A stretch of DNA of 27,968 nucleotides. It comes from Elsinoe ampelina (lineage: Eukaryota). The translations under genes and the position numbers were made by a program. The DNA is taken from the NCBI GenBank assembly GCA_010093995.1, contig ML992510.1, positions 1,243,339-1,271,306 of the forward strand. Direction: 5' to 3'. Below, in pieces: positions 3,096 to 27,839 of this stretch. Position 1 is the first letter of the stretch, and each line of letters begins with the position of its first letter. The notes under the pieces are model-generated. The model saw only the letters and a list, made by a program, of their open reading frames with translations. It had not been told where the DNA came from and searched no databases.

Positions 3096-6000
3096 CTACT
3101 CGGCTGTGGTATCCATCTGACTATTCCGTCTCCTGTTCTTTAGTGCATCTCGCACATCGTCCGCCGCACTCTTCTCTGCCACTTGCGCCTGAGGGGCCTG
3201 CTGAGAGCCATTCTCCTTCGCTTGATCTTTGCCGCCATCTGTATTCTTCCGCTTCTGCTTCCCTGCCTTCTCCTTCTTCTCGTTGTTTTGCCCTTGTGCC
3301 TCGGCCCATTTGTTCTTGCCCTTGCCCTTCTCCTTGGCCTTTCGCTCGAGCTCTTCTCTTTCCCTCGTCCTCTCTTCAGCCCTCTTGCGCTCTTCACCCT
3401 CATACAATGCAAGCAAAGCAGGAACGTACTTCTCCATCTTGGCAATGTCCCCGACCTTGACACGCATGTAGTCGAACGCTATGCAGACCTTCATGTCTTT
3501 GTTCGCGTGCAGCTTGAACGTAGCTTTGCCCACTTTTCCCTCATCCTCGGCATCTTCGTCAGCAGCAGTCGGCGCAGCCACGTCGTCGCCGTCATCATCT
3601 ACGTCGTCTTCAAGAACCTTCTCTTCCGCTCGCGCATCTGGACCATCCTCATACTCCAGAACGGGTACCTTGGCGTATCTCTGGCTGAAATGCGTCAACA
3701 CGACCGCTTTGGCGCCCATCTGCGCTCCAACCATCAACGCCTCTCCGGTAGTGCTGTGACGTTTCGCAATAGCGTCATTCTTCAGCTCGTCGTCGAAAGT
3801 GGCCTCGTGTACCAGGACTGTGCTGCCCTTGCCCATCTCAACAAATCTGCCTGATGGTCTGCAATCACCCGAGTAGCTGAGCTTGAAGCCGGATGGTAAA
3901 GTAACAGACACAGCCATCGCGTTGTTACAGTGACGGACGTGACAGGCTTGAACATCTGCGAAGCCGAGAGAGAAGGGGGCGAGGCGTGTACGAATGCGTT
4001 GGATGCGTGGACTGAGTGGTGGCTCGTCGCTCGGCAGCGCAGGAGGAACGAACCAGTTCAGTAAGGTGGCGCGATCGAGGTCACCTGATGCCGGTGTGAC
4101 GGCTATGGGAACGACGTGAGAATAACCAAAGTCTTCGAGTTGAGAGTACTCGAACAGCCAGTGTAGCATGGCCGAGTCGGACATGACGATGAGCTGAGGC
4201 GAGCGATTCAGGTGCATGACAGGGTTGAATAGTGGTGAGGCTGGATTGAGCGATGCTGCTGGAACCGAGTTGTGCACGGTTTGATACCAGGTCTTGATGA
4301 CTGATGCAGTACCAAGGTGATGGTCAGCGTGTAGATGGGAGATCCATATGCATCTCAGATCTCGCATGACAGCAGCAAATTCATCTGGCGAGTAGACACG
4401 TCGCAGTTGTCCAACTGTGTTTTCGCCAGCATCGAGCAAGATGCTGCCCCAACCAGGCACGCGAACCAGAGTACCTGATACGTTGCGGTACTTGGACGGT
4501 AGTGCAGAGCCCGTGCCGATAGTGATAACCTCAGCGTTCGGATCGACGACTTTTGACATCCAGTCATTCAAGGCGGATTGGTCTTCGAGCATGGCAGCCT
4601 CGGCTTTGTCAGCCTCAACTCTAGCCTCTGGGACTACATTGTCGAGCACGGTGTCAACGTCAAGCTGCACGTTCACTTGATCATTGATGAGCTTGTTTGT
4701 AGGTTCCAGCTGGAAGATTTGTCCGCGGTCGGCCAAGGTGACGTGCTGAGGTAAAGCTTGAGACTTGCTGGCTTCGACAATATGCGGCACTCTGTATCGG
4801 ACTGGGTCTATAGCGGACAGCTTGATAGTCGCAGACGCCGCAGAGTCGAAACTGAACCTGTCCTGGCTTATTCCTGGCGCCGCAACCATATGCTGTAGGC
4901 CAGACTTGCTGGAAATGAATTCCTGTAGGGTTGCATCCTCAAAGACATCCTTTCCCAAGATCCAGCAATATGCGCCAACGCCATCGATAATATCCGAAGG
5001 TAGACTGCTGACTTGATCGAGGAAAGGCTGTACATAGTCCCTTGACGGTAGATCTGCGACGAAGAATCCTGTGGCATCTTTAGGAGGCTCCAAGACCATG
5101 TCAGGGGTGATTGTATCGCCCTTGTCGTTCTGCAAGGACTCTCCCATTGTCAATGTGCTCCACTTTGACTTGTCCTTGAGTCCCAACTCCAAAGCCTTCT
5201 TCGGATCGAATTTGCCTCGTTGCGGGTAAGTTCGGACAATGTAAGAGATTGAATCCTTTGCAGGCGGTGGCGCTGGCAGGCGCTCGGATAAGACAGCACC
5301 GGGCCAAGGTGACCGTATCAAGACCTTTTCCTTCGGATCGCAGCCAGGTTGACCAGGTAATGGACCAGTGTAATTTTCAATCTTTTTAGTCACTGGGTTT
5401 CGGACAAAGATCTTGGCTGGTAGCTTCACCTCATCGAGTGGGCATGAGAAGAGACGATCAATACGCCAATCAGAGCTGAACATCTCAAAGACGACCTTGC
5501 GCGCAAGCTCAAGGACTGATTCTGGCTCATGAAGACTGCTTGTCGTGGTCTCGTTTGGCTGAACATCTTGCATCTCTTCATGACTTCGTTTCCTTTCATT
5601 GCGTGGAGTCTCGTTACCTGAAGTGGGAGCAGTATGAAGGCCCCAGACACGGATGAAATCATCCTTGAACAGAAATGTAGCAGGTCCAGTCTCGGCAGTG
5701 TTTCGTTCAGCTGAAAGGGCAGGTACCTCGTGCGCACTCAGTGGCATGCCGGTCCGGAAGATGAACCTTCTTGCTGTCGCAAGCATGTAATTAAGTCCAC
5801 CAGGGCCATAGATGGTCAAACTTTGCCTCTCCTTGTTCAGCTTCTGCAGATACACAGCTTGTTTGCGATCGTACTCCTCCCTGGTGAGGTCATCCTGCTT
5901 GGATTTGCCGAAGACCTTTGCCCGTATCTGTTCTGCGGCGGCAGCGGTGGCGGAAGAGACACCATCTGCCAGCACTAGTACAAGTCCAAGCAGACCGCCA

Positions 6001-6197
6001 ATATTGGACCACTCCGTCCGACCTGATATGAAGACTTCTGAGATCTTGAGGACTTTTGCCCCTTGCTGTATAGCGGCTCTTTGCAGACCCTCGCCAGCAC
6101 TCCCAAATAGATATCTCTTGCGATCAAAGTGAACCAGAAGTGTGGTGCCGCGAGTGTCTGACGTGGGCGTCGTCAGATACTGGAGGAAGGACTTCAT
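3096..6197 (-). CDS. TRZ1: tRNase Z long form (ribonuclease Z, ELAC2/Trz1 orthologue), 1033 aa from the first in-frame ATG
   Basis: Motifs GTGSALPSKYRN (PxKxRN loop), LLDAGE, HLHADHHLG (HxHxDH), YSGDCRP, HEATF, HST and THFSQRY are present. The N-terminal half has the pseudo-motifs YLFGSAGEGLQR and RGKFDPKKA. The tracked start at 6509 is TTG; the first in-frame ATG is at 6197 (MKSFLQY). Confidence 0.95.
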   Translation of the reverse strand: MKSFLQYLTTPTSDTRGTTLLVHFDRKRYLFGSAGEGLQRAAIQQGAKVLKISEVFISGRTEWSNIGGLLGLVLVLADGVSSATAAAAEQIRAKVFGKSKQDDLTREEYDRKQAVYLQKLNKERQSLTIYGPGGLNYMLATARRFIFRTGMPLSAHEVPALSAERNTAETGPATFLFKDDFIRVWGLHTAPTSGNETPRNERKRSHEEMQDVQPNETTTSSLHEPESVLELARKVVFEMFSSDWRIDRLFSCPLDEVKLPAKIFVRNPVTKKIENYTGPLPGQPGCDPKEKVLIRSPWPGAVLSERLPAPPPAKDSISYIVRTYPQRGKFDPKKALELGLKDKSKWSTLTMGESLQNDKGDTITPDMVLEPPKDATGFFVADLPSRDYVQPFLDQVSSLPSDIIDGVGAYCWILGKDVFEDATLQEFISSKSGLQHMVAAPGISQDRFSFDSAASATIKLSAIDPVRYRVPHIVEASKSQALPQHVTLADRGQIFQLEPTNKLINDQVNVQLDVDTVLDNVVPEARVEADKAEAAMLEDQSALNDWMSKVVDPNAEVITIGTGSALPSKYRNVSGTLVRVPGWGSILLDAGENTVGQLRRVYSPDEFAAVMRDLRCIWISHLHADHHLGTASVIKTWYQTVHNSVPAASLNPASPLFNPVMHLNRSPQLIVMSDSAMLHWLFEYSQLEDFGYSHVVPIAVTPASGDLDRATLLNWFVPPALPSDEPPLSPRIQRIRTRLAPFSLGFADVQACHVRHCNNAMAVSVTLPSGFKLSYSGDCRPSGRFVEMGKGSTVLVHEATFDDELKNDAIAKRHSTTGEALMVGAQMGAKAVVLTHFSQRYAKVPVLEYEDGPDARAEEKVLEDDVDDDGDDVAAPTAADEDAEDEGKVGKATFKLHANKDMKVCIAFDYMRVKVGDIAKMEKYVPALLALYEGEERKRAEERTREREELERKAKEKGKGKNKWAEAQGQNNEKKEKAGKQKRKNTDGGKDQAKENGSQQAPQAQVAEKSAADDVRDALKNRRRNSQMDTTAE

Positions 6198-6718
6198 TGG
6201 TGTGGCCCTTACTCCTCCCTTGCCTAGCAGTCTTCTTCTGTCTCGCCCTCCAGGTTCAAGGTCATGTATCCTCGAAGTCTCTCCGGTATGCTTGTAGCGG
6301 ATAAAGAAGCATAGGTGAGTAGTCCGACGGGAGTGGTTAAGACGGAGTCGCAGCCAGGGCGAAATGCTAGATGGCCGAGCAATCGTGGCGGAGGCAAAGC
6401 GGAGACGAGGAGGAGCCAACGTGCGGAGCAGACACGCGCATAAGTGTATATGGTGAGCAGGGCTAGGCTGGAAGTAGTCTGACAAGGGGAAATCGTTGAG
6501 TTGTGGCAATGGTCGAGCAGTGGTTGATCAAGAAGAAATTATTTTGTGAGGTCTTGAAGCTCTTGTCACTTGAGTCAAAATTGCGGAGAGGTTCACTTCA
6601 GATCAACGAAGAAGCTATACTGTATAGTGTCTCTTCTCCTTTGAAACCATCAAACATGGAGCAAATGCTAGATAAGGGATCGATCAAGGATTTACATCCC
6701 GCCGTGATACATCTTAAC

Positions 6719-7579
6719 TCAGAAATGCGGCCAGAAAGAAGCCCAGCGCACATCTTGATATGCCGCCGCTGGCAGGGACGCCATGCTGGAAAATGACACA
6801 ACCACCACATACATGCTTGCCGGAACAAAAAAGAGCAAGCATTGAGGCCATGAGAGCTTATAGCAGCCACCAGATTCGAGCCCCTTGAAGGCATACTTCT
6901 CGCGCCAGCAAACATATACCTCGGCGGTCCCGTAAACGCACAATAGCCCCCAGACAGCAAGACAACTAGCTCGCCAAAGATGCTTCTCCCATGAGGTGGC
7001 GAACTCAAAATTCCAGCCTGCCAGGTGAATGCTTGCGAAGGCGGCTGTCCCGATGGCCAGAATGATGTGGTCCTTCAGACAATTCGCTTGCGGATCTCTA
7101 TCGTTTGGGATCCTAGCCAATGGTCTCGCCTGCAGACCGACCCGACAAATCAGTCTCAGTAGTCGTTTGCTCCATCGACTGGACATGTAGGCATTTGGTT
7201 CGACAAAATCAAGTGGCGTATCAGACCAAGGTTCCTTGGCCGCCTCGCCGGCATTGCACAAGATATCTACTGTGGTATATCTTGTGGTGAGTACGATTGG
7301 TGAGTTGACATCCAGCGGTTTGTGCCACCAGATCAGCAGAGTAGTCAGCGCAGCCGCGGTCATAGCAATCGTCGACAGCTCGAAGGGCGTGATCGGTAAG
7401 TCCTCTGCAGCTCGACCCAGCGTTTGTACGAGCAGCCACCTGGTCTGCAGTATTGCAAGAAATTTTGTCATGCCATCCGCCTTGCTCTTGTCCCATATTC
7501 CTTTCTTTGTTGTTTGTGGCAGCTCGATGCTTCCCTGTTGCACGAGATAGGCAAGCTGTTTGGCCGAGATTGGGACCTT
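6719..7579 (-). pseudogene. 5'-truncated copy of a fungal multi-pass membrane protein family of unknown function
   Basis: Motifs IWDKSKADGMTKFLAILQTRWLLVQ, LPITPFELSTIA, WWHKPLDV, IHLAGWNFEF...EKHLWR and LPAAAYQDVRWASFWPHF resemble a widespread fungal hypothetical family (recognised from memory). The frame is closed upstream by TGA at 7582-7580. No in-frame ATG precedes the conserved part, and only ~100 bp remain before the divergent gene. Confidence 0.6.
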
Positions 7580-7680
7580 TCATCTATCTAAGCGCCAACT
7601 GTGCCACTCATCACGACGCCTTTTTCCTCATGTCAGGATGACTTGCCCTTCCATACTACACTGCTGTTCCGAGACAAAAG

Positions 7681-8929
7681 ATGTGGTATCAAGCAGCTTC
7701 AATTCTCATATTTCTTTTCGTGCAACGATGGCTACGATACAGTCGGCGGGATGCCGCCTTCAAGAAGTTTCCACGGCGAGACAGCTATCCCTCAATGACC
7801 CTCGACGAGGCCTACGGACTTCAGCGACAGCTGGCTGAACTTGAGTTCCCGACCATCTTCTCGGGTTCGGTCTTCTTTGCGTTATTCAAGGTGAGCTTCT
7901 GTGCTCTAATTGAAGACAAGCACTGACGGATCGCAGACTTATGGGATCCCTTCGATATCGAAGCTACTGGTGGCGACAGGGCAGTTGGCCAACGAGACGA
8001 CTGCATCCAAGCGAGCGGCTGATACCGGTGTCATCCTTACGGAAGTTGTTTTGCATCATCCCGCAAATCCTCGAGCCATCGATGGCATAGCTCGCATGAA
8101 CTATCTCCACAACCGATACCGCAAAGCAGGCAAGATCTCCGACGAGGACATGCTCTATACCCTCAGCCTTTTTGTCCTTGAACCGATCCGCTGGACAAGC
8201 AGATTCGAGTGGCGTGAGGTCTCCGAAGTGGAACGCTGCGCCATGGGCGTCTACTGGTGCTGGATGGGAGAGGCAATGGAGATCCCAGCCACTCCACTTC
8301 CATCAGCCAAATCAGGATGGAAAGACGGACTGCACTTCCTGGACGAGCTGGAACATTGGAGTCGACAGTACGAAGCCAAGCACATGGTCCCAGCGGCCTC
8401 TAACCAAGCCGTGGCAAAAGGCACCATCAACATCGCCCTCACCAATGTACCCAGATTCCTACACGGTTTTGCGACCGACATGGTCAACGCCCTCTTGGAA
8501 CCAAGGTTGAGGACGGCGATGAAGTTTCCCGACCCTTCCCCTCAAGCAGCTCTGTTACTTCAGGTTGCGATGACCACACGGCAACTGGTGATCAGACATG
8601 TCTTTCTCCCACGACCGTATTTCATGCGCAAGAGATGGTTCACCGACGAACTCAATGCCGAAGGAAAGATACATTCCGTCCAGTTCGTGGCTCATCCTTG
8701 GTATGTCAAGCCAACACAGTCATGGCGATGGAGTCTAAAGGGAGTGTTACTTCGACTGGCAGGAGGCAAAGTACCGGGTGACGACGGGGACAAGTACCAA
8801 CCAGAAGGGTACAAGATTCCCGACCTTGGACCGGAGACGCTTGTGGGTAAGGGTCACGAGGAGATGAATGCACAGCGTATAAGGATAGGCAAGAATCAGC
8901 GCCTTGGGTGTCCATTCTCGAGATGGTAG
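7681..8929 (+). CDS. MpaB/MpaB'-like ER-bound oxygenase (DUF2236 / rubber-oxygenase-like), 400 aa, 2 exons (7681-7890, 7937-8929)
   Basis: N-terminal hydrophobic anchor (MWYQAASILIFLFVQRWLRY), then LEFP...FALFK|TYGIPSISKLLVATGQL, KRAADTGVILTE, IARMNYLHNRY, DMLYTLSLF, PWYVKPT and C-terminal GCPF. A 46-nt intron at 7891-7936 (GTGAGC...ACTGAC...CAG) joins two tracked ORFs in phase 0. Confidence 0.88.
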
Positions 8930-9133
8930 TTGGAGCAAACAATCTATTCGAGTGGGAAACATGTGAACCGAAGAAACTGTCTCTGGTCTGAAAATATGTC
9001 CTAATTCGCTAACTATCTAAACATGGTATGATGAGCGTGACCGCGAGCCTCCCATTCCCCAACCCATAATATTACTCCTCATGACATCGTAAGTTTATGC
9101 ATTGGACAAGCATCATCTGCATGGGCCAGCCAT

Positions 9134-10459
9134 TTAGAAGTAGCTGCCCTGGCGGTTCTGCCTGGCGACGTCCATGGCAATGTCAAGTTGGGAGGGACCT
9201 TGAGGGAATGACTGGGCGTTGAAGATCTGGGGTTGAGAAAAGTCAAAGTTCATGTTCTGCTGGGAAGGAACGGCGTTGTTGATGTTGAGCATGGAAAGGT
9301 CGACGGGGGCTTCGGGCATCATGTTTCTGGTCGGCTTCGACATCTGTTGGGGGATCTCCTGCTGGGCATTCGACTGGCCACGACGGTTGTTGAGCTGAGC
9401 TTGGGATGCAATGAAGGCAGGGTCCTTTGAGATGTCTTCAATGAAGGGAGTGAAGGAAGGGTGGCGGAGGAGGGTCTGGATGAGAGCACGGTAGCGCGCG
9501 TTCTCCTCGGCGAGCTGGTCGTTGGTGTTCTTGAGGACAGTATTCTCCTGAGCCTTGACGGCTACCTCGCCTTCGAGCTGACCAATGTATTCTGGCTAAC
9601 GTTAGTATGATTACAACCATTCGGGGACGATGTACTGACCTTTTCTCCTCGAACGGAAAGCACGAGCAGAGACCTTGTTGCGGAGCTGGCGACGTTCCTT
9701 GCTGCTGAGCTTCTTGCCCTCCTCGGAAGCCAGCAGACGCTCGTCCTCGTCCATCTCCTCCTCGGCCTTCTTCATGCGGGACATGCTGGAGCCGTTCAGA
9801 CTGGCGGTGTCGTCCTCGGCGATGGATGAGAGTGCGCTGCCTTGACGCATTTGGTTGAGCAGGCGGGAGATGCTCTCCTCGGTGTGGGGATCGTTGGGCT
9901 GGGGGGCACGACCCTTACCCTTGTTGTTCTGAGGTTGCTGCTGTTGCTGTTGAGCCTTTGCAAGGGCGGCTTGTTGGTGCATGCCGGGCCAGAGACGACC
10001 GACATCACTTTGTGGTTCCTCATAGCCGTCGAGTTGGGTTGGGTCGACAAAGTTGTTCTTGAACATTGCCTGGTTATTGAAGTCCATGCTCATGTCTGCG
10101 TCCATGTCGACACCTGAATTCCAGCCCATGCCAAAGCTGCTCTCATCAATGCCGGAGTTGAAGCCACCCATGTTGAACCCATCAGGCATTGGCTGGTTCA
10201 GGGCGGAGAGGTCGACACCGACGCCAGTCTGCTGTGGGAAGCGGTCGTATTCGTGCGATGGGCCGGCGAAGATCTGGCCGTCCTCTTCAGAGTAGACCTG
10301 TGCGGCAACGTTTGACGGACCTGCTCTTGCGGATGTTCGTGATGACGCACGTGGGGAGAATGTGGTGCCTTGGTTGAAGTCGAAGAGGTTGTCCATGTCC
10401 AAGTCGGACTTGAACATGTTCGGGGTGACACCCCTTTGGGCGAACTGTGCGGTAGCCAT
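9134..10459 (-). CDS. Fungal bZIP transcription factor (LziP-like), 425 aa, 2 exons (10459-9640, 9591-9134)
   Basis: Basic region EEGKKLSSKERRQLRNKVSARAFRSRRK continues as EYIGQLEGEVAVKAQENTVLKNTNDQLAEENARYRALIQTLL (leucine zipper) after removing a 48-nt intron at 9639-9592 (GTCAGT...ACTAAC...CAG). Exon 2 runs in frame into the tracked ORF ending QNRQGSYF*. Confidence 0.92.
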
Positions 10460-11737
10460 TGCGTGTCGAGGAAGTGGTCGACGGCTCAGGAGGTTGTTAT
10501 CGCAATGTCAATGCTGAGGCAGGATGTTTTGACGCGGTACGGGGGTGCTGCGAGGAAGAAGCCGGTGATGAGAGGTTTCCAGGCAGGTTCCTGAAGTGAT
10601 GACGCGGCCTCTGTTGGGTGAAGAAATCGGAGTTTCGGGGTTGTTCTGGGGAAGGCTTGTTGATGATGTGTCGCGGATGAAAGTGTATGATTGTACAGTC
10701 GCTCAATGGTCTGCAAGCGAGCGTGAGTGTTGTTGTGGTGTTGATGGAATGCAAAGGCGGGATGAAGGGTGAATTGAGAAGGTGAGAATGGGATGGGCCA
10801 AGGAAGCCGGCGGATGCGAGGATACTCAAGACTGAAGAGAGAGCACAGCCCCGAGACAGCCCCAACCTTGAAGGCCCACCCAAGAAACGCTCGCTGGGCC
10901 AGGCTTGTCTGACGAATCGCTGTCCACTTTTGTTTCTCCCGGAGATCTGCCTTGGAGCGACTTTTCAGGAAACGGTCGGGAATTGTGGGCGACTCGTTGC
11001 ACCGATGCAGTAACCGCTTGACCCGAACGAGCAGATTCGGCAGTCGATCGGTGTTTGGTTTGTGAACAGAGGCAGAAACCTTGTCACTTTTGCTTCGGTC
11101 CAATCACTTGGAGGCTTTGACATGCTCTTGTGATTGGCTCCTGCCCGACGAGCTGACGAAACCTCAGCTCGACTCGATCTTAACGCGCCTGATATCGGCC
11201 TCATGAAATCGACCTCTTTGCTCACCAGTTTCACCCGATCGCAAACTTATTTTGCTGCGGTATAGTCGACGGATCCACAGTCCCGTGGCTGCTAACTAAC
11301 CTGTTCATAACAAAATGGACGACAAGCTCTTCCGCGATTCTATCTATAGAACAGACCCATCTTGATCTTCTGCTCGACGAGCATCTCCCGACATCACTGC
11401 CTGTGCAAAGATTCTCAAGTTGATCACGGTGAATGCTCATGAACCTGAACTTCATGTCTTGTACTTGGCCGTTCAAACAATCCGACTGCCAACGGTCGAC
11501 CACAATGCCGGGATGATTCCGCGCCTGAATCTTCTTCCTTGACCCTGATCCCCTGCATAGCTTAAGAGGCATCGGGTGTCCACTCTCTGTGATCGTTGTA
11601 ACCCGAATATAGCCCGAGAAATTTGGTTCCGAAGGGCAAAAACTGTCGGTCCGATATTGAGCGACTGCCAGCGGAACTTGACTACCGTGGACATTGCTGT
11701 TGATGGTGATGGTCGCCATGTTAAAGGTCGCTATTCA

Positions 11738-12302
11738 TCATGCCTCAAGATTGATGCTTCGTCCAAATCGTCCGTAGAGAGCCGTCGTAAGACCGGTCAT
11801 CTCTTCACGAATCTGGTCGAGCTTGCCTTCCAGTGTTTCGACCTCTCCGTCGACGTCCTCGACTGATTTTGTGAGAAGCTCCTGTACCTTCTCGAGCGGA
11901 AGTTGAACAAATGAATCCCCGATGCGATATCTGATGAGCGACAGTCGGTCATTGACTTGAACAAGTGCTCACGATTACTTACGAAATCTTCTCGTCTTCG
12001 TCTGCTAGTTCCAATTCGTTGGAGATTTCTTCGAGATCTTCCTTTTCCTTCTGTGATTGGAACATCAGAATTATCGCAATTGTGAACCATATCGGTGACT
12101 TGCATTCTTGGCCTTCAACTCCTCCTCGATCGTTCCGACCTTGCGGTGCAGTGTGCTGAATCGATTGATCTTTTCTTGGTCCTCCTTTCTGACCTCAACC
12201 TCTTCACTTTCCTCCTGCTTCGAGAGCTTCATGTGGGTCAACACCAGTGCGTAGAGGAGATCGGTATGTACTCACCATTCTTCGCGGAGCTACTGCCGCC
12301 AT
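11738..12302 (-). CDS. GIM3: Prefoldin subunit 4 (Gim3/PFD4), 136 aa, 4 exons (12302-12276, 12226-12104, 12050-11983, 11930-11738)
   Basis: Spliced translation: MAAVAPRRM|LSKQEESEEVEVRKEDQEKINRFSTLHRKVGTIEEELKAKN|KEKEDLEEISNELELADEDEKIS|YRIGDSFVQLPLEKVQELLTKSVEDVDGEVETLEGKLDQIREEMTGLTTALYGRFGRSINLEA*. EDQEKINRFS, YRIGDSF and LYGRFGRSINLE are characteristic of PFD4. Introns are 49, 53 and 52 nt. Confidence 0.93.
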
Positions 12303-12620: not shown

Positions 12621-14770
12621 CACCCCTTTACTAAATAGCTATAACTCTATAATAGCTAGTTAGTAGACTACTAACTTAAGGAATAGCTATTATAAGAAGG
12701 CCTTATACCTTCTAGGTAGTAATAACTTAGTTAATCTATTAGCTAAGGTGTCTACTAATAGTGTCTATATTACTAAGATAGAGCTAGATAGTTCTCTAGC
12801 TAGATTAATCTCTTGTCTTAGCTAGTAATAATAAATATTAATATAGTAAAGATATATATTTAGCTTCTTAATTAGAGTAGTAATAAGACTAATAGTTTAC
12901 TAATTGTTACACTAAATACTAACATATTTAAGGGGATAGATAGAGGCTATTAGCCTTCTCTACTATATAGCTTACTTAGTAGTCTCTATAAGAGTAAGTA
13001 ATTTAGCTTCTATACTTAAGGTTATAACTATTAGCTACTTAGTAGCCTTCTAGTTAATTAAGCCTTAGAATATCTTAAATAGATAGCCTTAAAGGCTCTT
13101 TCTTAAAGAGTAACTACTAAAGCTAGTATCTAATAAGGCTTAGAAAATTAGAGGTAGTATTAAGCTATTAAAGGTAAGAGCTAGATCTTTAGTTTTATAG
13201 AGATACTAGATTACTCTATTTACTAGCCTCTAGTAAGTTAGTAATAGATTAGTTAAGTACTTTAATAATCTAGAAGTAGTAAAGGTAATATTAAGCCTTA
13301 TAATAATAGTTATAAAGTTAATAGATCTAATCTTCTACTAGTATAGGTAGATCTCTTATAGTAATACTTAGCCTTTATAAGGTTAAAGTATCTTAATTAG
13401 TAGTAGTATTAATACTAGCCTTATTAGTTCTATAATAAACTTACTATATATCTATTATATATACTAGGCTTAGCTAAGCTAAAGTCTCTTTATTAGTCTA
13501 TCTCTTATAACTTAGATAGCTAGAAACTAGCTTAGATCTCTAAGTACCTTTATCTTATATTTAGTATAGAGAGCTATAATAATAGTATTAGCTTTCTCTT
13601 TATACTTCTTAAGATATATAATAGTAATATTATTTATAAAGAAGAAGATTATTACTTTAGGTATTATCTAGAGGTATAGAGCCTTAGAGGCTTAAGTAAA
13701 TCTAATACTCTTTAGAGTAGTAGTAAATTTAGTATACTAGAGAGCTAAGACTTACTTTAGGCTATATAGTGCCTTATTAAGTAGTAGAATTATATCTAAT
13801 AGAGTAATACTAGAATAGTCCTTTATAAGATTCTCTATAACTAGCTTAAATCTAGTATAGTAGATAGTCTTATTAATAAGACTATTAATATAGGCATTAA
13901 TAATATCTATCTAGATAGCCTCTATATCTTTATAAGTAAGTAATACTATAAGTATTCTAAAGATCTTAGCTACTAGAGTTACTATATAAGTTTTAGATTT
14001 TATTAATTAGAGATTACCTCTTATATAGACTTTTACTTTATACTTTATAACCTTTCCTTTATTATTAACTTTATAGGTAAATACCTATATTAAAGAGATA
14101 GGCTTACTAGTAGCTTAAGCTACTAGTATAATAGTCTATATATATTTTAAGTATAAAGTAAGTAATTTAACCTTTATAGCCTCTTAAAATTACTTCTTAT
14201 AAGAATAAGCCTTAAGTTCTCTAATATTAGCTAGTAGTAGTAGAAGATTATCTCTTAATTCTAGCTTAGGCTAAGTTAGTGTTAGTGTTATTAATAGATA
14301 AGTATTAAAGGCTTAGTAATATCTAGGAGCTTTATTAGTTTATATAAGAGTAGTAATATATACTTACCTTCTTAGTTTTTTTATTCTTCTTATTATAAGA
14401 ATATATTTAGGAAGAAGATTAGCTAACCTTATAGTAATTCTTTAAGAGAGTTACTTAGACTAAGCTTTAACTACCTCTTTAGTCTAAACTTCTATCTTAT
14501 CTCCTTTAGCTTTATCTCCTCTAAGTAGTAGAGGAGATAGCTATACTACTATAGATAGTAGTAAGACTAAAGTATTAAAGAACTATTTATTTAGTAAAGA
14601 TTTCTAGATCTAAGCTTAGTTTAGATCTAGAATAGCCTTATCTAATTAGTCTAATAAAGGTAGTAACTAATCTAGTATAATAGAGTAACTCTTATCTAGC
14701 TACTAAGATAGGCTTAGCCCTTAATCTAGATTACTCTAACTTAGAGTCTAAGATAGTATCTAGTTCGGCT

Positions 14771-14866
14771 ACTAAACTAGATTCTAAACTAGATTCTAAA
14801 CTAGATACTAAACTAGATACTAAACTAGATACTAAACTAGATATTAAACTAGATACTAAACTAGAT
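14771..14866 (+). repeat. Tandem array, 8 x 12 bp, consensus (A/T)CTAAACTAGAT
   Basis: Eight contiguous units counted directly: five actaaactagat, two tctaaactagat and one attaaactagat. It lies in the Copia integrase-RT linker and the period is a multiple of 3. Confidence 0.95.
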
Positions 14867-14874
14867 TTAGTTTA

Positions 14875-15077
14875 TAATACGAGATAGATACGAACCAGAT
14901 TTAGTTAGGATCTAGTTTAGATTAGTTACGTAATTTTAGTATCGTAGCCTAGGCTTCTAGCCGCTCTACTCTTAATATTATATATACTTTATATACTAGC
15001 TTTTCTTTTTCTTCTTCTAAGTCTTAATATCTTAATAAATAGACGTAATTAACCTCTTATCTTACTAGTTATAATTA
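14875..15077 (+). repeat. 5' LTR of Gypsy element A
   Basis: 203-bp direct repeat of 27,637-27,839. Termini TAAT...ATTA correspond to RIP'd TGAT...ATCA. Confidence 0.92.
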
Positions 15078-18000: not shown

Positions 18001-20207
18001 TTAACTACTATAGCCTTAATAAGGTAACTAAGCGAGATATCTATTCTCTACTCCTTATTAAAGAAATGCTTATACGCGTAAGTAAGGCTAAATAGTTTAG
18101 TAAGATCGACATCTATTAAGCCTTCTACTACCTCTATAACTCTATTAATAGTAAAGATCTTACTATGTTCTCTATATATATAAGTAACTTTAAGTAGCTA
18201 GTAATACTATTCGGCCTTACTAATGTCTCTATAGTCTAGTAGAGGTTTATAAATTATAATTTTATTAATATACTAGAGCGCTTCGTGTCGATCTACCTAG
18301 ATAATATTCTTATCTATATAAATAGCTTCTACTAAGAGTATATTAAGTATATTAAGCTAGTACTCTAGAGGCTCTATAAATTAGGCCTAAACACTAATAT
18401 TAAGAAGAGTAAGTTCTACTTAATAGAGGTAAAGTATCTTAGTATTATTATTAGCTAAGATAGAGTTAAAATAGATCTAAAGAAGATAGAAGCTATATAA
18501 GTCTAGAAATAGCTAGCTCCTAGTAATACTACTTAGGTAAGAAGCTTTATTAGTTTCTATAGCTACTATTACTACTTTATTAAGGGATTTAGTACTATTG
18601 CTAAGCTACTAAATAATCTTCTTAAGAAGGATACTATACTATAGAATAATAAGTATACTACTGTATTTAACTATATAAAGTATACTATTATAAGTATACC
18701 TATCCTTACGTATTTTAATTACTTAAAGTAGATAGTTCTTAAGACTAATACCTTCGATACTACTACTACTAGAATTCTATTATAATATAATAAGTCTAAT
18801 ATTCTCTAGCCTATTACCTTTTTTAGTAAATCTATAAATAAAGCTAAATATAACTATACTATCTATAATAAGGAACTACTAGTAATTGTCTAAGCCTTTA
18901 AGAAATAGGCCTCTAAGCTTATAAGTACTTAATCTAATAAGGCTATCTACGTCCTTACTAACTACTAATTCTTAATATACTTTATAAAGACTTAGAAGCT
19001 ATTACGCTACTAAGTATACTAGGCTCTCTACCTTACGTAGTTTAACTTTAAGATTATATATAGGCCTAGCGCTACTAATAGTAAGGCTAATATACTTACG
19101 AGGAGAAATAGAGATATACTATATTTAAGAGAAGACTCTAATCTACGCTAGATACTACTACTATATAAGGTGCTAGATTAGCGTATTATTAACGAACTAA
19201 ATCTAGGTTGTATCTAAACTAGATTACTAATCTAAGCTAAACTAAGATCTAGTTTAGTATCTAGTTTACGGACTAGTTTACTATCTAGTTCGCTACCGAT
19301 TTTATTTTCTATTTTGCTACCTATATTAGTGCCTATTTTAGCTACTAAACTAGATATCTACGTAGTACCTATCTTAGCTACGAAAGAACCTTTACTCCTT
19401 TTCGAAGAAGTAGCTAAAGCTAACTTATAAGACACTAAGTGTAAAATAGTTAGAGGTATTTACTATATAATAGAGGCCTTTCTAAAGAGAAAATAGCTAC
19501 TATCGAGCGATGTTACTATTAATAAAGGAATATTATAGGTCGCTAGCTAACTATTCGTACTATAGTTAATAGCTATAAAGGTTATTTAAGAAGTCTATAT
19601 ATTAAAGAACTATATATATAAAGGAGCTACTAAAACGGCTACTATAATTAAGACTACCTTTTATATCTCGAGCTATAATAACTTTATTAAGAGGTTTATA
19701 GCTAACTATTATAACTATAAGCGCTTAAAGGCTTACTATAGCTTACTAGCTAGCCTTCTATTGCTATTACCTATTCCGGTAAGGCCTTAGTAATATATTA
19801 CTATAGACTTTGTTACTAGTCTACCTCTAGTAGATAGCTATAATATAGTACTATATGTTATTAATTACTTATCTAAGAAGTAATACTTAATCTCTTACTT
19901 CTAGAGAGAAGAAGAAACTTTTATATTTAAGATAGCTAAGCTATTATTCTTCTACGTATAGAAACTATATAGCCTACTAAATAGTATTACCTCTAACTAT
20001 AGCCTTTAGTTCGTTAGCGACGTATAGAAGAGACTCTACTAGATTCTAAAGATTATAGCTAAGCTATCTACTACTAGCTACTCTTAAATAGATAGCTAAT
20101 TAGAAGTTATAAACTAAGAGTTTAAACGAGTTATTCGATTCTATATAATATAGTTTAGTAATTAGACTCTTATTCTACTAGTTATAGAGTTCTCTATAAA
20201 CGCTAAC

Positions 20208-20394
20208 TATTAAAGCCTTATATTAAAGCTACGTATATCGTAATATAGAGAACGCCTATCTAACCGAATAGTTCGTTAGTAGTAGAACTAATTACTATTA
20301 AGTTTAAGGCGTAAGTGCTATATAAGATAAGTAGGTACGTTACGTAAGTAGAACTAGCTACTACTAAGTGCTGCTCTAATACTAGGCTCTTATA
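20208..20394 (-). repeat. 3' LTR of Gypsy element B
   Basis: 187-bp direct repeat of 26,719-26,905. On the minus strand it starts TATAAG (RIP'd TGTAAG), directly after the PPT. Confidence 0.92.
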
Positions 20395-20782
20395 ATTGTC
20401 TCCTTCTCTAGGAGAGCTATTCTTAGCTCTCGACTAGAAGTGTATAATATATAGCGCCTTCTAGAAGTAATATAGGCTTAAGGTAGTTAAGGTATTTATA
20501 TAAAAGCCTTATATATATCTTATATACTACTTAGTAGTAGTAATCCTAGGGATTTAGTTTCTATAGAGGCGTTTATCTAGTCGCTATAGTACTAAAGCTA
20601 ATTAGTAGCGATAATATTACTTTTCTTAGAATTTCTAGTAGTATCGTAGGAGATACGCGCCTTACGCTAGTAGCTATAACAAAGATATAGTATACTAGAG
20701 ATTAGTCTATATAATCTTATTATTCTTCCTTATATTCTTCTTTTCTACCTAAAATATATCTATATTTTATTAATTTTTTACT

Positions 20783-21604
20783 ATATAAGTATACTACCTA
20801 TAACTATTATATTATTTAACTCTAGGCCTCCTATAGCTAATACTTATAGCGTAAGGTCTACTAGCGCCTAGAGAGCTATTACTACTAGCGCTAACTCTAT
20901 AACTCTTTTACTTCCTAAAGAGAAGACTAATACCTATACTAGGTACGCTAATAGCGTTACTAAGAGTAAGCTAATAGAGCTCTTATAAGAGACATAACTA
21001 ATTTATAGTAGGTCGTATTTATACTAGAGGTAACTTTAGTATCTTTTTCTATTATAAGTGTAAATACTACGCCTATAGTAAGTATATATATAAGCTACTT
21101 CTATCTATTCTATGTAATATATATATTAACGCCTTTAATATAGTTACTAAGCTTAAGGCCCCTAACTAGGCCGATATTACTACAGCTAAGAAGTATATAT
21201 ATACTATAGCCTATAAGAATATCCCTAAGGTTAAGAAGTTTAAGACTATACTTAAGGTATACTATACTAACAAGAATAAGATTATTAGTAAGGTCTTAAC
21301 TCCTTATATAAAACCTATAGGTAGCTTACTTAGTAGTGTTACGCTTAAGTATAAGAAGGTTAAGGAGCTATAGAAGATTAGGCGTAGCCTTTATAGCTTA
21401 ATTACTATCGGTAAGGAGGTAAGTTAGACTATACTTCTTATACGTTATAAATATAGCTAATAGGTTTAGATAGTATATAACTCTAGTAGTTCTACTATCG
21501 AAATTAACTATATTATAGCTAGTAGGTAGCTTATAGCCTCTATAGTACTTATAGAGAAGAATCTTAGTATAGAGGTAGACGAAGAGAATAGTAAGAATAA
21601 GTAG
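20783..21604 (+). pseudogene. RIP-inactivated antisense accessory gene inside element B, ~228 aa, putative exons 20783-20784, 20826-20965, 21009-21418, 21470-21604
   Basis: After removing introns 20,966-21,008 (GTAAGC...ACTAAT...TAG) and 21,419-21,469 (GTAAGT...GCTAAT...TAG), one frame has only four internal stops (all TAG, no TAA) over ~228 codons of TA-saturated DNA. The first intron (20,785-20,825) and the split AT|G start need a RIP-reverted donor and are less certain. Confidence 0.7.
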
Positions 21605-24600
21605 GCATATACGAGCTAGGTATATATCTCTAGCGCTATATCTATAATAAGGCCTTATATAGAGTATAATAGAGTATAGAGTTTAGGTTAATACCTATAA
21701 TAGTAGCGTAAGTATAGCGCTTTATTAAAATATATTTCCCTAGGTAAGAAGTCTATTCTTTGCCCTATTTATGTATTTATATAATCTATTTACTTATATA
21801 CTCTATAATCTATATCTTCGGTAACTTTTCTTAGCTACTCTTAGCTACGACTCGTATATAGCGATTAGCTCTCCTATATTTACGTAATTCTCTTTAGGTT
21901 CCTAGCTATTAAACTTAATAGGCTAGTCCTTCTACTTTACTAAGTAGAATACCTTACTCTTCGTAGTTCTCTTACCTAGAATCTCCTCTACTATCTACTT
22001 ATCTACTTCGTTAGCGAGAGATATACTCTCTTTTAGCTCCTTACTAGCTTTACCTATCTATAGTTTAAGAAGAAATATATAAAAGACATTATAGATATAA
22101 TACTAACTTAGTAAAGCTAGGTAATATACCTACGATTTAATTATGTTAAGTATATAAAATAGACTAAGGAATTATAGTTCTATCTTCTTCTTTAGTATAG
22201 GTAGCTATAAGTTCTTAGCTAAAAGTAGTACTAAGTTACCTACGCTATATACTTTTAGCGTATACTTTCTATTATAGTACTTAGTCTAGTAGGTAGAAGT
22301 CTCTTTCTATTACTCTATTAGCTTTATATATATATCTTATAAGTGTTATACTAACTCTACTACTACTAGTACTCTTCTCCTTAAAGTCTTATTCTAAGAC
22401 TTAATAGCTATTACCTCTAACTCTAGATAGTAGCTATATATTATTTAGAAGAGACTTATACGTAGCGTAGTATAAATACTATTATTACTTACAAATTTCA
22501 CTTATAATAGATGTTCGGCCTAGTTATTCTATAGCTCTATATAGTAGTACCTTAGGTACTATTCTAATATCTAGTTTTACTACTTAGTTTAACTATCTAT
22601 CTATAGGTAAAAGGCTATACTAAGCCTACGCTTTACACGCGTTTCGTAATAGAATTTACTCTAGAACTAGCTAGTAAAGACTAATCCTTAATTACTTACT
22701 ATTTCTCTTAGGATACTATAATAGTAAATAACGTAGTTACGTAGAATCTCTACTAGCTCTATAGATATATACTTCTTAGTAGTAGAGATATATAGTAACA
22801 TCTTAGTATAATAGTCTATAATTACTAGTACTATATTATAGACGCTACTACCTTACTTACTTAGTAGTAGATTAGTAATAAAATCTATTATAATTTCTTA
22901 CTATAGGTAGTCTAGTATTAGTAGCGTATATAGCTTACTATAGAGGCAATAGTAGTATACTTTATACTTCTAGTAAACTTAGTATAACTATACGTAGTTA
23001 TTAATATCTTTTCTTATAGTTAGCTAGAAGTATTTCTATAATAGAAGCTTAAGTATCTTATTCTTACTAAAGTAACTAGCCTATTTGCTATTATAGTATA
23101 TATATAGTATCTATACCTTAAGTACGCTATTATTCGGAATAACTAGTAACTCTTTATAGAAGAGAAAATTATCTTATATATTCTATAGTACTCTACTCTT
23201 ATCTCTACTACTCTTCGCTTATAAATGTAGCTTTATAATCTTAGAGTCTTATCCTTATAGTAGCTCTACTACTAATATTAGGTTAGTAGATAAATCTTTA
23301 AAGAGATTCTCCCTTATAGTTACTATAACTATAACTCGCTAGGTCGTTATAAGCCTCTAAGAGTTCTTAGAAGAGAAGTCGCTACTATATAGTGTATAGG
23401 TAGCCTAGGCCTATTCTAGAGTAGCCTTATATATAGCGTAGATATATCTAATAAGCGAAGTAGCTTTCTTAACGTTAGTAGTCTAGTCCTATATATAAAG
23501 CTTATTCTAAAGAGTAAAAAGGAGATATAATACCTCTTACTCTTCTACTACGTAGTTAGAGCGCCTCGAGGGTATATTAGCTAGATTCCTTATACCTAGC
23601 TAATACTCTATTATAAAGTTAAAAGTAGTAAGGAAGGTAGTCTAGTAAGCTTATTAGCTATTTAGCTATTTTAGCTTTATAAATCCTTAGAGATTATTAT
23701 AGTTAGTAAGTACTTAAATTATATATAAGATACCTTCGAGATAGTATTACTATTACTTAAATATATATATAATTACTAATAGCTCTTAGTTGTATATCTC
23801 GTAATTATACTTAGCTAGGATAAACTTCCTTAACTAAAAGGCAATTAGGTACTAAGTACTATCGAATAGTTAGGACAGAATTACTACTACTATAAACTTT
23901 AATATATTGCTTTTAATACGTAGAGGCAGCGTAGAATTATAGTAGTAGAGAATAGAGGCACGTATAAATATGTCTTTAATGTTCTTAAATATTTATTATT
24001 TACTATTTACTTATACTCTATATAAAAGAGCTATACTTACAACCTTTAACTAAGCCTTTAAGGAGGCTAGAGAGAGAAGTAATAATCTTAGAGTAGTACT
24101 ATATAAAGTAATAATAGAAGTTTATAAAGCTAATAAACTACTAAACCTTATAATAACTCTTCGGCCTTAGCTAATTCTTAATTATAGTTACTCTACTTAG
24201 ATCTATTAAGACGCCTATAGTAGAGATAATATAGCTAAGAAATTCTACCTTCTTAGTAAAGAATTTATATTTCTTAAGGCTAGTATATAAAGTAAACTTC
24301 TATAGCCTTACTAGAACCTCGCGTATATAATATATATAGTTCTCTCTTAAGTTACTATAGATAAGAATATTATTAAGGTAGATAATATAGATAGTATTAA
24401 CTAGTCTATCTAGCGCTTTATTAATATACGCTTAGAAGGTAGCTAGAGCGTTAGTTAATCTAAAAGGTATAACTAAATACTTAAAATAGCTATAGTATAT
24501 ATAGAATATAGTCTTCTACTTATTACTATACTTAATAGAGATCTAATAATAGACATTCTTAAGATCTAGCTTCGAGAACTACTAGGCTTACTTAAGCTAA

Positions 24601-26718
24601 TTAAGTGTCTTACTAATAAGTAGAAGCAAGTAGCGATTCTTAATAGTTACCTCGTTTAAACTTTAATAATCTATATATAAGCGTAGACTACTATCTTTCT
24701 TAGGTATAAATAGGATAGAAGCACCTACCTTACTTATAGAGTGTCTAATTTACTTATTTAATTAAGTAGTCTCGAGATAGTTCTTAAGTACTTTAAGCTC
24801 CTTAACTAAGAGATTATATAAGGGCTAGAATAGAGGCCTCTTACCTAGCTCTAGCTTAATTATATACTCTACGCCTAGTAGGTATAGCAATTTAGTAATA
24901 TTCTTATAGATAAAGATATTAAAGAACTCTACGAATTCTAATAGTAGAGCTAGGTTATCTACGGCGTAAGTATAGTTCTTAGATAGAGTCTATACTATAG
25001 TATATACTCTCGGCTTATTCTTAAGGTCCTTTATAAAGTCTTCTAGTTCGTATAGATAAACTATATATAAGAAGTAGCTATATAACTAGTTATCTATAGC
25101 GCTATCTATAATTATATACTATCTTCTCTACTATAGGCGCTCTAAAATAACTAAAGGGCCTAGTCCTAAGTCTATAGCGTAGAAGAGGCTAATTATCTCT
25201 CTAAGGTTACTATAGAAGTCTACTAGGCGTATATAAAGCTAGTATATACTATAGTAGAATCTAGCTTACTCTATAAAGAAAAAGATACTTAGATACTAAG
25301 TATACTTAACTCTTAGTAGATTATAATAAAGAGTAAATACCTAAGATATAAAATTAACTTCTATATAATTGTCTATAAGAAATATATAGTCTTCGCGCCC
25401 TATAGGCACTATAATAGCGCTATAATAGAGTAGTAATAGATAAGTGTTAATTAGAAGAGGGAAAGAGCTTAGTTATACTCTTTAGCTAAGCCCTTAGAGT
25501 TTCCTAACTTAGAGTTATTAGACTTATCTATAGTAGTAACCTTACGTACTACCTAAGACTTACTATTCTTTTATAAGTGCTTTAACCTATACTCCGGCTT
25601 AATATAACTAGTTTTACTATAACTATAGTACTTAGTATCTCTCTTCTACTTATTAGAGGAACCTCCTTAACTACTAAACTATTTAATAAGTAAGTTAGTA
25701 GCTTTACACTTATAGTAAGCTTAAGAGCTACTACTAGACTAGTAGTAGTATTCTTCTTAGAGGCTACTATAACTACTATACTTACGTAGGTAGTTACTTT
25801 TATCTTTCTATATAGTGCACTTACTACTAGTATAGTCTATAGACTTAATATATAAGCCTAAAGAGACTAACTTCTAGCGCGTAGCTAGAATAGTATAGTG
25901 TTTAATAATAGTAGTACGTAGTATAAGCTATAGCTTAGTAAGGAGATAGTATACTCTCTACTCTTCGGAGTAGAGAGCTAGTTACTCCTTAAGAGTAGCA
26001 AGTTTCGAGGCGAAGGCCTAGATAGATTCGCCCTTATATTATTAGGCTCCTTTATATATAAGAGTTATATATACTTTATAATTAATAGAGTTATTAACTA
26101 TGTCCTATACGAACTAGTAGAATTACTTCTACGTATAGCTTTCTAAGCTATCTACGTAGTAGTAGTAATACTATATCTTATCTAGCTCGCCTATAAGAAA
26201 TATAACTCTATAGAGTACCTTCTACTAGTTACTAGAATAAGTCTTAGGGGCTAGAGCAAAAATAACCTTAAGATTCTTTAGAAAGGATCTTATCTCTTTT
26301 AGAGTCTTACTCTAGTAGAGATAGAGTTCCCTTAGTTAAGGTTATTTAGAGAATAGCCTTATAAATAGTCCGCTACTACTATATATACTCTACGTACTAG
26401 TATTACTTACTATAGACTTAGTAGAAGTACGCGAGCTATAGTTAAAGCCTCCTTAATAGTATTCTATATCGTATATATAGTATATTTACTTAATCTCTTT
26501 CTCGAGGCTCTAAGCTTTAAGCTCTAGCTCTAAACACTTATACTTAGTATATAGGTATAGTAGCTACTCTATAAGAGTTTCTTCTTTCTCTAGGAGAGTC
26601 TACTCGATAGAGTTTATCTCTATAACATTGTTTATATAAGGTATAAGCGCCTTACTAATAGAGTTCTAGTTATCTATAGAGTCTAATAGATTATAACTAT
26701 AAGTAGAGTAATTAAAAC

Positions 26719-26905
26719 TATTAAAGCCTTATATTAAAGCTATATATATTATAATATAGAGAACGCCTATCTAACTAAATAGTCTATTAGTAGTAGAACT
26801 AATTACTATTAAGTTTAAGGCGTAAGTGCTATATAAGATAAATAGGTATATTATATAAGTAAGACTAGTTGCTACTAAGTGCTACTCTAATACTAGGCCC
26901 TTATA
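26719..26905 (-). repeat. 5' LTR of Gypsy element B
   Basis: 187-bp direct repeat of 20,208-20,394, followed on the plus strand by the TSD CTAAC. Confidence 0.92.
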
Positions 26906-27636
26906 CTAACTCCTTAGAAAGTACTAAGCTATTACTATTCGAGGTAACTAGAGAATATAAGCTAAGAATAAGCTTCTAGCCTCCTACTAACTTACTATTA
27001 ATAAGAGCTAAGCTTAATAAGGCCGAAATTCGCGCGCTTACTAAATAACTAGAAGAAGCTCTTACTATTACTAAAGCTAACCTTACTATCGCTTAGTTAT
27101 AAATAGTAGAGTAAGCTAATAAACACCGCTAGCTAATAGAGTTTAAAGCTAGCAATTTAGTGTAGTTATCGACGAAAAACCTTTAGCTATAGAGTAATCT
27201 AAAGCTACTACTAAAGTATATTAGTTCTTATAAGATTCTTAAAAAATAGTTACTATTAGTATATAAGCTTAATCTACTAGCTACTTTATAAAGGATTTAC
27301 TCTATATTCTACGCTAATCTTCTTACTAAGTACCTAAATAACTCTCTACTAGGCTAAGCCTTTAAGAAACTACCTCTAGTAGAGATTAATAGTAAGGAAA
27401 AGTATAAGGTAAATAATATAATTAATATATATATACTATAAGAAAAGCTAGTTACTTATATAAGCTAAAAGAGCTATCTAGAGAATCTTATCTAGTAGCT
27501 AATTAACAATCTTAAAGAAGTAGCCGATATACTACGTAACTATCTAAACTCTTATATAAATAAGCTAAGGTTAAAATAGATTAATAAATAATATATAATA
27601 GCGTTTAAGAGTAAATATACTTAAGAGAGAAGATAG

Positions 27637-27839
27637 TAATATAAGATAGATACGAACTAGATTTAGTTAGGATCTAGTTTAGATTAGTTACGTAATCTTA
27701 GTATTATAGCTTAGGCTTCTAGCTACTTCGCTCTTAATATTATATATGCTTTATATACTAGCTTTTCTTCTTCTTCTTCTAAGTCTTAATATTTTAATAA
27801 ATAGATATAATTAACCTCTTATCTTACTAGTTGTAATTA
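27637..27839 (+). repeat. 3' LTR of Gypsy element A
   Basis: 203-bp direct repeat of 14,875-15,077, preceded by a purine tract and followed by the TSD GTTTA. Confidence 0.92.

Follow-up and report, generated by a model that had tools for sequence, protein, structure and literature searches.

A probable antisense accessory gene, inactivated by repeat-induced mutation, in a Ty3/Gypsy chromovirus family of Elsinoe ampelina

Introduction

The DNA considered here, referred to as the window, is a stretch of 27,968 nucleotides (nt) of contig ML992510.1 of the fungus Elsinoe ampelina (assembly GCA_010093995.1, positions 1,243,339 to 1,271,306 of the forward strand), and all positions given below are counted from its first letter. 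It contains a retrotransposon flanked by long terminal repeats (LTRs), element B, whose gag-pol genes are encoded on the minus strand; between the end of pol and the 3′ LTR of this element an interrupted open frame is found on the opposite strand, from about 20785 to 21604. The explanation that best accounts for the available evidence, with a probability of roughly three in four, is that this frame represents an antisense accessory gene of the Ty3/Gypsy chromovirus family to which element B belongs, inactivated by RIP (repeat-induced point mutation), the fungal process that mutates repeated DNA from C to T and from G to A. The homology of the frame to an intact protein of Elsinoe fawcettii, KAF4546987.1, supports the view that the plus-strand reading corresponds to a real protein family, which is apparently undescribed. 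The copy present in the window is dead: it is saturated with RIP, five of the six Cys codons of its motif have become Tyr codons, four TAG codons interrupt it and its ATG is gone. The interest consequently resides in the gene family and not in this locus.

The antisense frame in the chromovirus spacer

Element B is a Ty3/Gypsy chromovirus read on the minus strand, with a pair of LTRs (3′ LTR at 20205-20394 and 5′ LTR at 26716-26905, 89.5% identical over 190 nt), a reverse transcriptase-RNase H-integrase region, a chromodomain and a polypurine tract beside the 3′ LTR (minus strand, 20399-20409, a purine run read from the sequence). Its gag-pol region (21995-26715) is saturated with RIP and contains at least one frame change, the Pfam domain RVT_1 (expectation value, E, 4.4e-13) being detected in one minus-strand frame and RT_RNaseH_2 (E 3.6e-10) in another; these two domains and RT_RNaseH all exceed the Pfam cut-offs, and the pol region also matches five generic Gypsy pol proteins. 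The chromodomain at the end of pol (Pfam Chromo, 21851-21994, minus strand) scores just below its cut-off (E 6.9e-5, 23.1 bits against 25.1).

The chromodomain and the 3′ LTR are separated by a spacer of 1,456 nt (20395-21850), in agreement with a first-pass annotation of this DNA, which had put the distance at about 1.4 kb and had held that element A, a second Gypsy element in the window, has almost no counterpart. In element A only about 300 nt were measured between the SH3 domain of the integrase (27175-27333) and the LTR (27637). The proposed gene lies in the spacer of element B between the chromodomain (21851) and the polypurine tract, on the strand opposite to gag-pol, and has the position and orientation that characterize the antisense open reading frames (ORFs) designated aORF-3R.

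The surroundings are strongly altered by RIP. The GC content is 50-62% from position 1 to about 12.3 kb, the part of the window that carries ordinary genes, vs 24-31% in an AT-rich block that extends from about 12.6 kb to the window end; in this block the TpA/ApT index reaches 1.9-2.6 and (CpA+TpG)/(ApC+GpT) falls to 0.07-0.16, whereas the gene part gives 0.53 and 1.29, respectively. The antisense gene and pol are equally saturated (TpA/ApT 2.15 and 2.07; (CpA+TpG)/(ApC+GpT) 0.07 and 0.08, respectively), and the 822 nt of the gene keep three CpA and three TpG dinucleotides, one of them accounted for by a surviving TGT codon.

In spite of this mutational load the frame has remained largely open. 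The exon model comprises exon 1 (20785-20965, start uncertain, reading frame with position modulo 3 equal to 1), exon 2 (21009-21418, position modulo 3 equal to 2) and exon 3 (21470-21604), that is 219 codons with four internal TAG, the number counted in the first-pass annotation, plus the terminal TAG at 21602-21604. Given a background of 11-13.5% stops per codon, the probability of such a run is about 3e-8. The proposed plus-strand frames have 1-3 stops per 100 codons against that background, and the frame of exon 1 in particular has 3 per 100 vs 8-24 in the remaining five frames. The pol frame of element B (21900-25800, minus strand) contains about 8 stops per 100 codons, a value close to the background, and its difference from the accessory gene is likely explained by the small number of Gln and Trp codons in KAF4546987.1 (6 Gln and 1 Trp in 213 residues) together with the frame changes in pol.

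Upstream of the frame, at 20715-20750 on the plus strand, there is a pyrimidine-rich tract, a candidate core-promoter CT box, that had already attracted attention; it consists of 86% C/T, and none of the other 36-nt segments compared, 15,332 in all from either strand of the AT-rich block, reaches that value. The start position proposed initially, 20783, had to be abandoned because it lies out of the frame of exon 1, the nearest in-frame ATA codons being 20785 and 20833 (others occur at 20791, 20800, 20809 and 20899); no ATG is left in 20400-21000. Taken singly, the features recorded by the first-pass annotation are weak or ambiguous.

A homologue in Elsinoe fawcettii

A phmmer search of 1.84 billion representative proteins with the plus-strand translation of 21011-21604, stops being replaced by X, returned two matches. 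One of these is KAF4546987.1, an intact protein of 213 amino acids (E 6.4e-5, query residues 3-135 aligned to residues 43-172), named in its source as hypothetical protein D9617_77g092410 of E. fawcettii, the citrus scab fungus. The second, a repeat protein of 1,044 amino acids (E 3.6e-8), matched by means of ten short repeat units confined to query residues 4-37 and was rejected as a composition or repeat artefact. A word-based protein search with the window translation gave no match among 107 candidates. When KAF4546987.1 was compared with the window by tblastn, its residues 41-170 aligned with 21011-21409 in a single frame (E 1e-9), with Q158 opposite the TAG at 21371.

The relationship becomes clearer when RIP is taken into account. 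In a RIP-aware alignment, in which a column is considered compatible if the window codon can be derived from a codon of the homologue residue by C>T or G>A changes only, 88 of 133 columns were compatible (background 0.20 per residue) and the score was 116, vs 25.2±4.0 with a maximum of 48 for 100 shuffles of KAF4546987.1. No significant alignment was obtained upstream of about 20929, and the start of the gene is accordingly uncertain.

The correspondence includes the cysteines. KAF4546987.1 carries the motif C-x2-C-x9-C-x12-C-x2-C-x6-C, formed by Cys 31, 34, 44, 57, 60, and 67, which align to TAT at 20935 and TAC at 20944 in exon 1, the site of the first C-x2-C, and to TAT at 21020, TGT at 21059, TAC at 21068 and TAT at 21089 in exon 2. 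The Tyr and Cys codons from which a six-Cys motif had been reconstructed previously thereby align one for one with those of an intact protein, and the TGT at 21059-21061 is indeed preserved. A seventh Cys of KAF4546987.1 (residue 108) lies opposite a RIP-compatible Tyr in the window. Downstream of the Cys module KAF4546987.1 contains a helical region, including TNKNKI and KVKEL-Q-KIRR, and an acidic tail that ends in a run of Asp. The spliced window translation reads KVKEL*KIRR within the Lys-rich helical region of exon 2 and EVDEE in the acidic end encoded by exon 3, and both the charged helical stretch (KVEELRKIRR-like) and the acidic tail of the first-pass annotation are thus found in the homologue as well.

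Proposed introns

Two fungal introns had been claimed, and GT..AG segments are present at both places, 20966-21008 (intron 1, 43 nt, GTAAGC..CTAAT..TAG) and 21419-21469 (intron 2, 51 nt, in frame, GTAAGT..GCTAAT..TAG); the first is supported by the homologue and the second, located beyond the homologue alignment, is likely. As regards intron 1, the open stretch in the first frame stops at 20986 and that in the second frame opens at 21002, and because these stretches do not overlap, the removal of a segment, and not a shift of one nucleotide, is needed to join them. KAF4546987.1 is continuous across this position, with Q40 before and G41 after the intron, and the window has one extra codon at the junction, in line with the claim that the 43-nt intron is what keeps the frame. 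Of the 10 residues that precede the donor, seven are RIP-compatible with residues 31-40 of KAF4546987.1, and for the corresponding 12-mer a compatibility of at least 7/12 occurs at only 109 of 30,664 positions in the block. Under permissive RIP-aware scoring the 43-nt spliced model scored 123 and the unspliced one 118. Overall, the sequence support for intron 1 may be regarded as moderate.

The likelihood of intron 2 derives from its canonical splice signals and from its cluster of stops, four of its 17 codons being stops as against four of the 219 exon codons (P=2e-4); the homologue alignment ends at 21409, before this intron, and the C-terminal parts of the two proteins differ in length. A probable third intron was also part of the original proposal and is not retained, as the only further candidate found, 21078-21143, is ruled out by a gap-free coding alignment to KAF4546987.1 in which 14 of 22 columns are compatible. 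A larger in-frame intron extending from 21419 to the acidic tail was likewise ruled out, there being no AG at an in-frame distance.

Weighing of the evidence and alternative explanations

A number of observations count against an antisense gene of the element family, or limit what can be said of it. The alignment is carried by the central part of the gene, since neither exon 1 nor exon 3 gives a significant alignment by itself (exon 3 against the tail scored 18, shuffles 16.3±2.8). No second homologue was found: KAF4546987.1 recovered only itself among 1,476 candidates of 117-373 amino acids, and two metagenome scans and one scan of viral contigs, made with KAF4546987.1 and the alignment, yielded no relative. 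The single homologue is an ab initio gene model that could in principle be placed on the wrong strand, and carriage by a retrotransposon is so far seen in the lineage of the window only. No Pfam family matched the six frames of the spacer or KAF4546987.1 at E<=10, one sub-threshold match excepted, and a sequence search of the PDB with KAF4546987.1 gave no match at E<=10; the AlphaFold2 model of this protein, built from a two-row alignment, had a mean predicted local distance difference test (pLDDT) of 50.2, too poor for fold assignment. With respect to the introns, intron-like motifs number 11 (plus strand) and 5 (minus strand) in 15.4 kb, or about 0.5 per kb on each strand, a frequency that makes intron motifs alone weak evidence, and an alternative intron of 66 nt (donor at 20943) scored 131, above the 123 of the 43-nt model. 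The 66-nt model matches the Pro-rich N-terminus to a Leu-rich frame and loses the first C-x2-C. Finally, a minus-strand frame with the same codon boundaries as the proposed gene is equally open, with runs of 94, 61, and 44 codons (21401-21682; 20963-21295).

It was considered in the first-pass annotation that a one-off insertion, absent from other copies of element B, would speak against the proposal. Logan contigs of a DNA run (X1), possibly from the same sample as the window, were placed on 20205-23200 at an identity of at least 80%, and gave 2,774 contig pieces covering all 30 bins, of which 760 were at least 99% and 340 less than 90% identical; contig depth in X1 is not a copy number. At 260 of 270 variant places the differences were transitions, and among the 40 of 320 variant rows listed, un-RIPped C or G was found inside the gene where the window has T or A, in 21 contigs at 20907 and in 13 at 20923. 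One X1 contig joins 20429 to 20509, skipping 79 nt between the polypurine and the pyrimidine tracts, and represents a deletion variant. As X1 possibly derives from the sample of the window, these data show copy number within one genome only. A further run (X3), with another species label and from another study, provided 222 pieces on the same interval, less mutated ones included. In a loose end of 28 letters before 21352, X3 differs from the window at 10 positions, 8 of them T or A in the window and C or G in X3, and this stretch reads Leu-Glu, like KAF4546987.1, where the window reads Leu-Lys. The many diverged copies in X1 and X3 indicate that the region is multicopy and not a private insertion of the window copy.

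Eighteen X3 pieces are at least 99% identical to the RIP-mutated window copy, which is unexpected across species labels and could reflect close kinship, mislabelling or transfer. Two other runs, X6 and X9, presumed to be RNA, yielded no pieces, a result that carries no information on expression.

The copies also bear on the explanation that survives best after that of an element gene, namely that a host gene was captured once by an ancestor of the element through transduction or recombination and travels with it as a passenger that takes no part in the life cycle of the element, KAF4546987.1 being then a cellular gene or its orthologue. Transduction is among the origins of additional ORFs listed in a review of such elements (PMC7264820), and KAF4546987.1 is a single-member cluster on one contig for which no paralogues were found, where an active multicopy element might be expected to give several annotated copies. 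Locus tags neighbouring KAF4546987.1 were also sought among the pol matches, but none of the five generic Gypsy proteins returned comes from E. fawcettii. Against a passenger, transduced ORFs are said in the same review to occur in one or few copies (PMC7264820), whereas many diverged copies are present here, and the position, orientation and own-promoter layout fit the recurrent class of antisense genes located between pol and the 3′ LTR. A passenger gene is on this balance unlikely, bearing in mind that capture as an origin and a later role in the element are compatible with each other.

Returning to the antisense gene of the element, the nature of its product may be asked. Canonical Zn(II)2Cys6 clusters have the spacing C-x2-C-x6-C-x5-12-C-x2-C-x6-8-C, and the first-pass annotation had regarded the motif in the window as a variant of it. 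It appears improbable that the protein genuinely belongs to the fungal family of Zn(II)2Cys6 (Gal4-type) binuclear clusters and has a canonical DNA-binding transcription factor domain. It does have six Cys, its C-x2-C-x6-C with preceding Lys residues fits the second half of the canonical pattern, and the order of its parts, with helices and an acidic tail after the Cys module, is reminiscent of small Gal4-type activators; the first loop, however, has 9 residues in KAF4546987.1, none of them basic, and 10 in the window, in place of the invariant 6, and the Zn_clus profile (PF00172) found no match at E<=10 in KAF4546987.1 or in the six frames of the spacer, nor was there any match to a protein in the PDB. 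Membership in this class is not supported.

Other approaches did not assign the module either. The sub-threshold Pfam match mentioned above, Imm5_like on KAF4546987.1 (E 0.013, 15.8 bits, cut-off 25), is regarded as a chance hit. In the AlphaFold2 model the pLDDT is below 50 over most of the Cys module (residues 1-36, 45-48, and 50-65), and helices are placed at 72-87, 99-134, and 151-172 within a model of low confidence (pLDDT 50.2). The ESM Atlas yielded as look-alikes nothing but unnamed Ascomycota clusters (0.91). With the Cys module as query, a cluster in which 28% of the members carry DUF3716 came at rank 4 with a score of 0.76, far below the lead level, and the DUF3716 profile (PF12511) gave no match at E<=10 in KAF4546987.1. 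Judging from its Cys pattern, the protein contains a six-Cys module of unassigned fold that is probably zinc-binding, and by analogy it might perhaps resemble small Gal4-type factors in its action.

The equally open minus strand raises the question of whether that strand is the coding one, as a C-terminal extension of pol or as an extra ORF in sense orientation, in which case the plus frame and the gene model of KAF4546987.1 would both be mirror images. The longest open run of the AT-rich block, the 94 codons at 21401-21682, is in fact on the minus strand, and the minus frame is that of the chromodomain, with 3-4 stops per 100 codons over 21000-21600. The bias towards RNY (purine-N-pyrimidine) codons is equal on both strands and, being self-complementary, leaves composition uninformative on this point. 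The plus strand is favoured by several lines of evidence. Over 20700-21000 the plus frame alone is open, with 3 stops per 100 codons vs 24 in the minus frame concerned, and the intron motif bridges the switch of the plus frame. All seven Cys of KAF4546987.1 are kept as TGY-derived codons, though at least 34% of the codons differ by non-RIP changes; coding on the minus strand would need conserved A-ending Ala or Thr codons at all seven sites. Leu (19%), Ile (13%) and Tyr (12.5%) dominate the minus reading, in which a run of Val and Leu would be expected opposite the acidic tail. Sense-strand coding is accordingly quite improbable, and the openness of the minus frame is taken to mirror a gene that was once rich in GC.

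That the spacer is non-coding, its open frames and GT..AG segments arising by chance from RIP-skewed composition, is hardly tenable, for although intron-like motifs are common and Tyr codons so frequent (20 of the 219 in the exon model) that many Cys patterns could be drawn, the match is significant library-wide, the RIP-aware alignment stands more than 20 standard deviations above the shuffles and the exons contain 4 stops in 219 codons vs a background of 12%.

Comparison with known systems

Antisense accessory genes of LTR retrotransposons are known chiefly from plants. Gypsy elements there provide well-described examples located downstream of pol and before the 3′ LTR (PMC7264820, PMC11963269); these aORF-3R cases include gene23 of maize Grande, rice RIRE2 and Silene Retand with its TRP28 domain and are reported to be present in most copies of a family. 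According to the same sources, gene23 of Grande has its own promoter and a nuclear product, and the plant cases are proposed to bind DNA and to have a regulatory function (PMC7264820, PMC11963269); for such antisense genes in general, nuclear localization or a regulatory role is proposed and no function is given as established (PMC7264820). The gene of element B resembles these ORFs in position and orientation (PMC7264820, PMC11963269). It differs from them in that the plant genes belong to non-chromovirus lineages, have spacers of 2.9-6.6 kb and encode unrelated proteins; no TRP28 match was found here.

The closest fungal parallel is brtn, an antisense additional gene of the Boty-like Ty3/Gypsy elements of Botrytis cinerea and Sclerotinia (PMC8365987, PMC4227169, PMC7264820). 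Like the gene described here, it belongs to a fungal Gypsy element with a chromodomain and is drawn, in PMC7264820, as an extra antisense gene between pol and the 3′ LTR. Unlike it, brtn occurs in Leotiomycetes, while the homologue here is Elsinoe-like, and the two are compared by layout, not by sequence. The brtn gene is also said to contain introns. In the searchable full-text literature, subscription papers being outside it, brtn of Boty is the sole fungal antisense accessory gene encountered, and searches of the same literature for fungal Gypsy, Zn2Cys6 and E. fawcettii found no description of an antisense accessory gene like this one.

Outside the retrotransposons, HBZ of the deltaretrovirus HTLV-1 and APH-2 of HTLV-2 are antisense genes read from the 3′ end that encode nuclear regulators (PMC11963269), an analogy of layout and proposed role. 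These viral genes have no sequence relation to the gene of element B, and the promoter of HBZ is located in the 3′ LTR. HBZ is a bZIP (basic leucine zipper) protein and is not Cys-rich.

At the level of the protein, the six Cys, the spacing of the second half, the neighbouring basic residues and the helices and acidic tail that follow are shared with Zn(II)2Cys6 proteins (PF00172), the length of the first loop and the absence of a profile match, both given above, setting the two apart. A further comparison is offered by REP9-1 and REP9-2 of Zymoseptoria tritici (PMC8232023). These DUF3716 (PF12511) proteins are likewise small fungal proteins of unassigned function encoded by accessory genes of a transposon, in their case one of class II. 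Their carrier is a DNA transposon and not a retrotransposon, and the PF12511 match is absent in KAF4546987.1. The Cys patterns of the two presumably bear some resemblance.

Genomic setting

Element A is a Gypsy element read on the plus strand (RNase H at about 18651-19000, SH3_Tf2-1 at 27175-27333), its LTRs (14875-15077 and 27637-27839) being 91.1% identical, and element B is inserted within its integrase region. A direct repeat of 5 nt, GTTTA, is found on both flanks of element A; no matching duplication is visible in the window sequence at the ends of element B. Directly before the 5′ LTR of element A, at 14735-14866, there is a tandem array of about 11 units of 12 nt, and an inverted match to this array (73-88% identity) occurs inside element A at 19138-19356. 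Over the interval from about 11.5 to 13 kb the GC content goes down from values in the 50s to less than 30%. The GC-rich flank (1-12300) contains ordinary genes, among them an FRG1-like ORF (2039-2911, plus strand), a tRNase Z-like ORF (3096-6509, minus strand) and an ORF for an mpaB-like oxygenase (7910-8929, plus strand).

Proposed mechanism and implications

The following model can be hypothesized for the active members of this family. The antisense gene would be read opposite to gag-pol, probably from its own promoter represented by the pyrimidine tract at 20715-20750, and would be interrupted by the better supported short intron of 43 nt and by the likely one of 51 nt. Introns that are antisense to the genomic RNA are not spliced out of it, and every transposition reproduces them faithfully; those of this gene would have been kept through transposition because the genomic RNA of the element corresponds to the other strand. 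The product would be a protein of about 225-240 amino acids. Behind a variable N-terminus it would have a six-Cys module, C-x2-C-x9/10-C-x12-C-x2-C-x6-C, the second half of which contains basic residues, followed by a long helical middle rich in Lys and Glu and by an acidic C-terminus. The module may bind zinc and, by analogy with the antisense accessory proteins of other retroelements, the protein may act as a nuclear regulator of the element that binds nucleic acids or chromatin.

A bolder version, speculative and rather doubtful as it stands, would see in this undescribed antisense family of Dothideomycete chromoviruses a minimal transcription-factor-like protein, in which an atypical six-Cys zinc module would provide DNA binding, the helices dimerization and the acidic tail activation. 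Through this protein the retrotransposon would activate the LTR that it carries or reprogram genes of the host, a role that would make it the fungal counterpart of retroviral antisense regulators such as HBZ.

The class of antisense ORFs located between pol and the 3′ LTR is already known; it is the protein family that is apparently new. If the antisense gene of element B is what it appears to be, it would constitute a second fungal case of an antisense accessory gene, and one with a recognizable architecture of Cys module, helices and acidic tail, while KAF4546987.1 provides an intact gene open to expression and assay. In addition, the gene could be read out of RIP-saturated DNA once C>T and G>A changes were allowed, an approach that may be useful for the annotation of the AT-rich compartments of fungal genomes.

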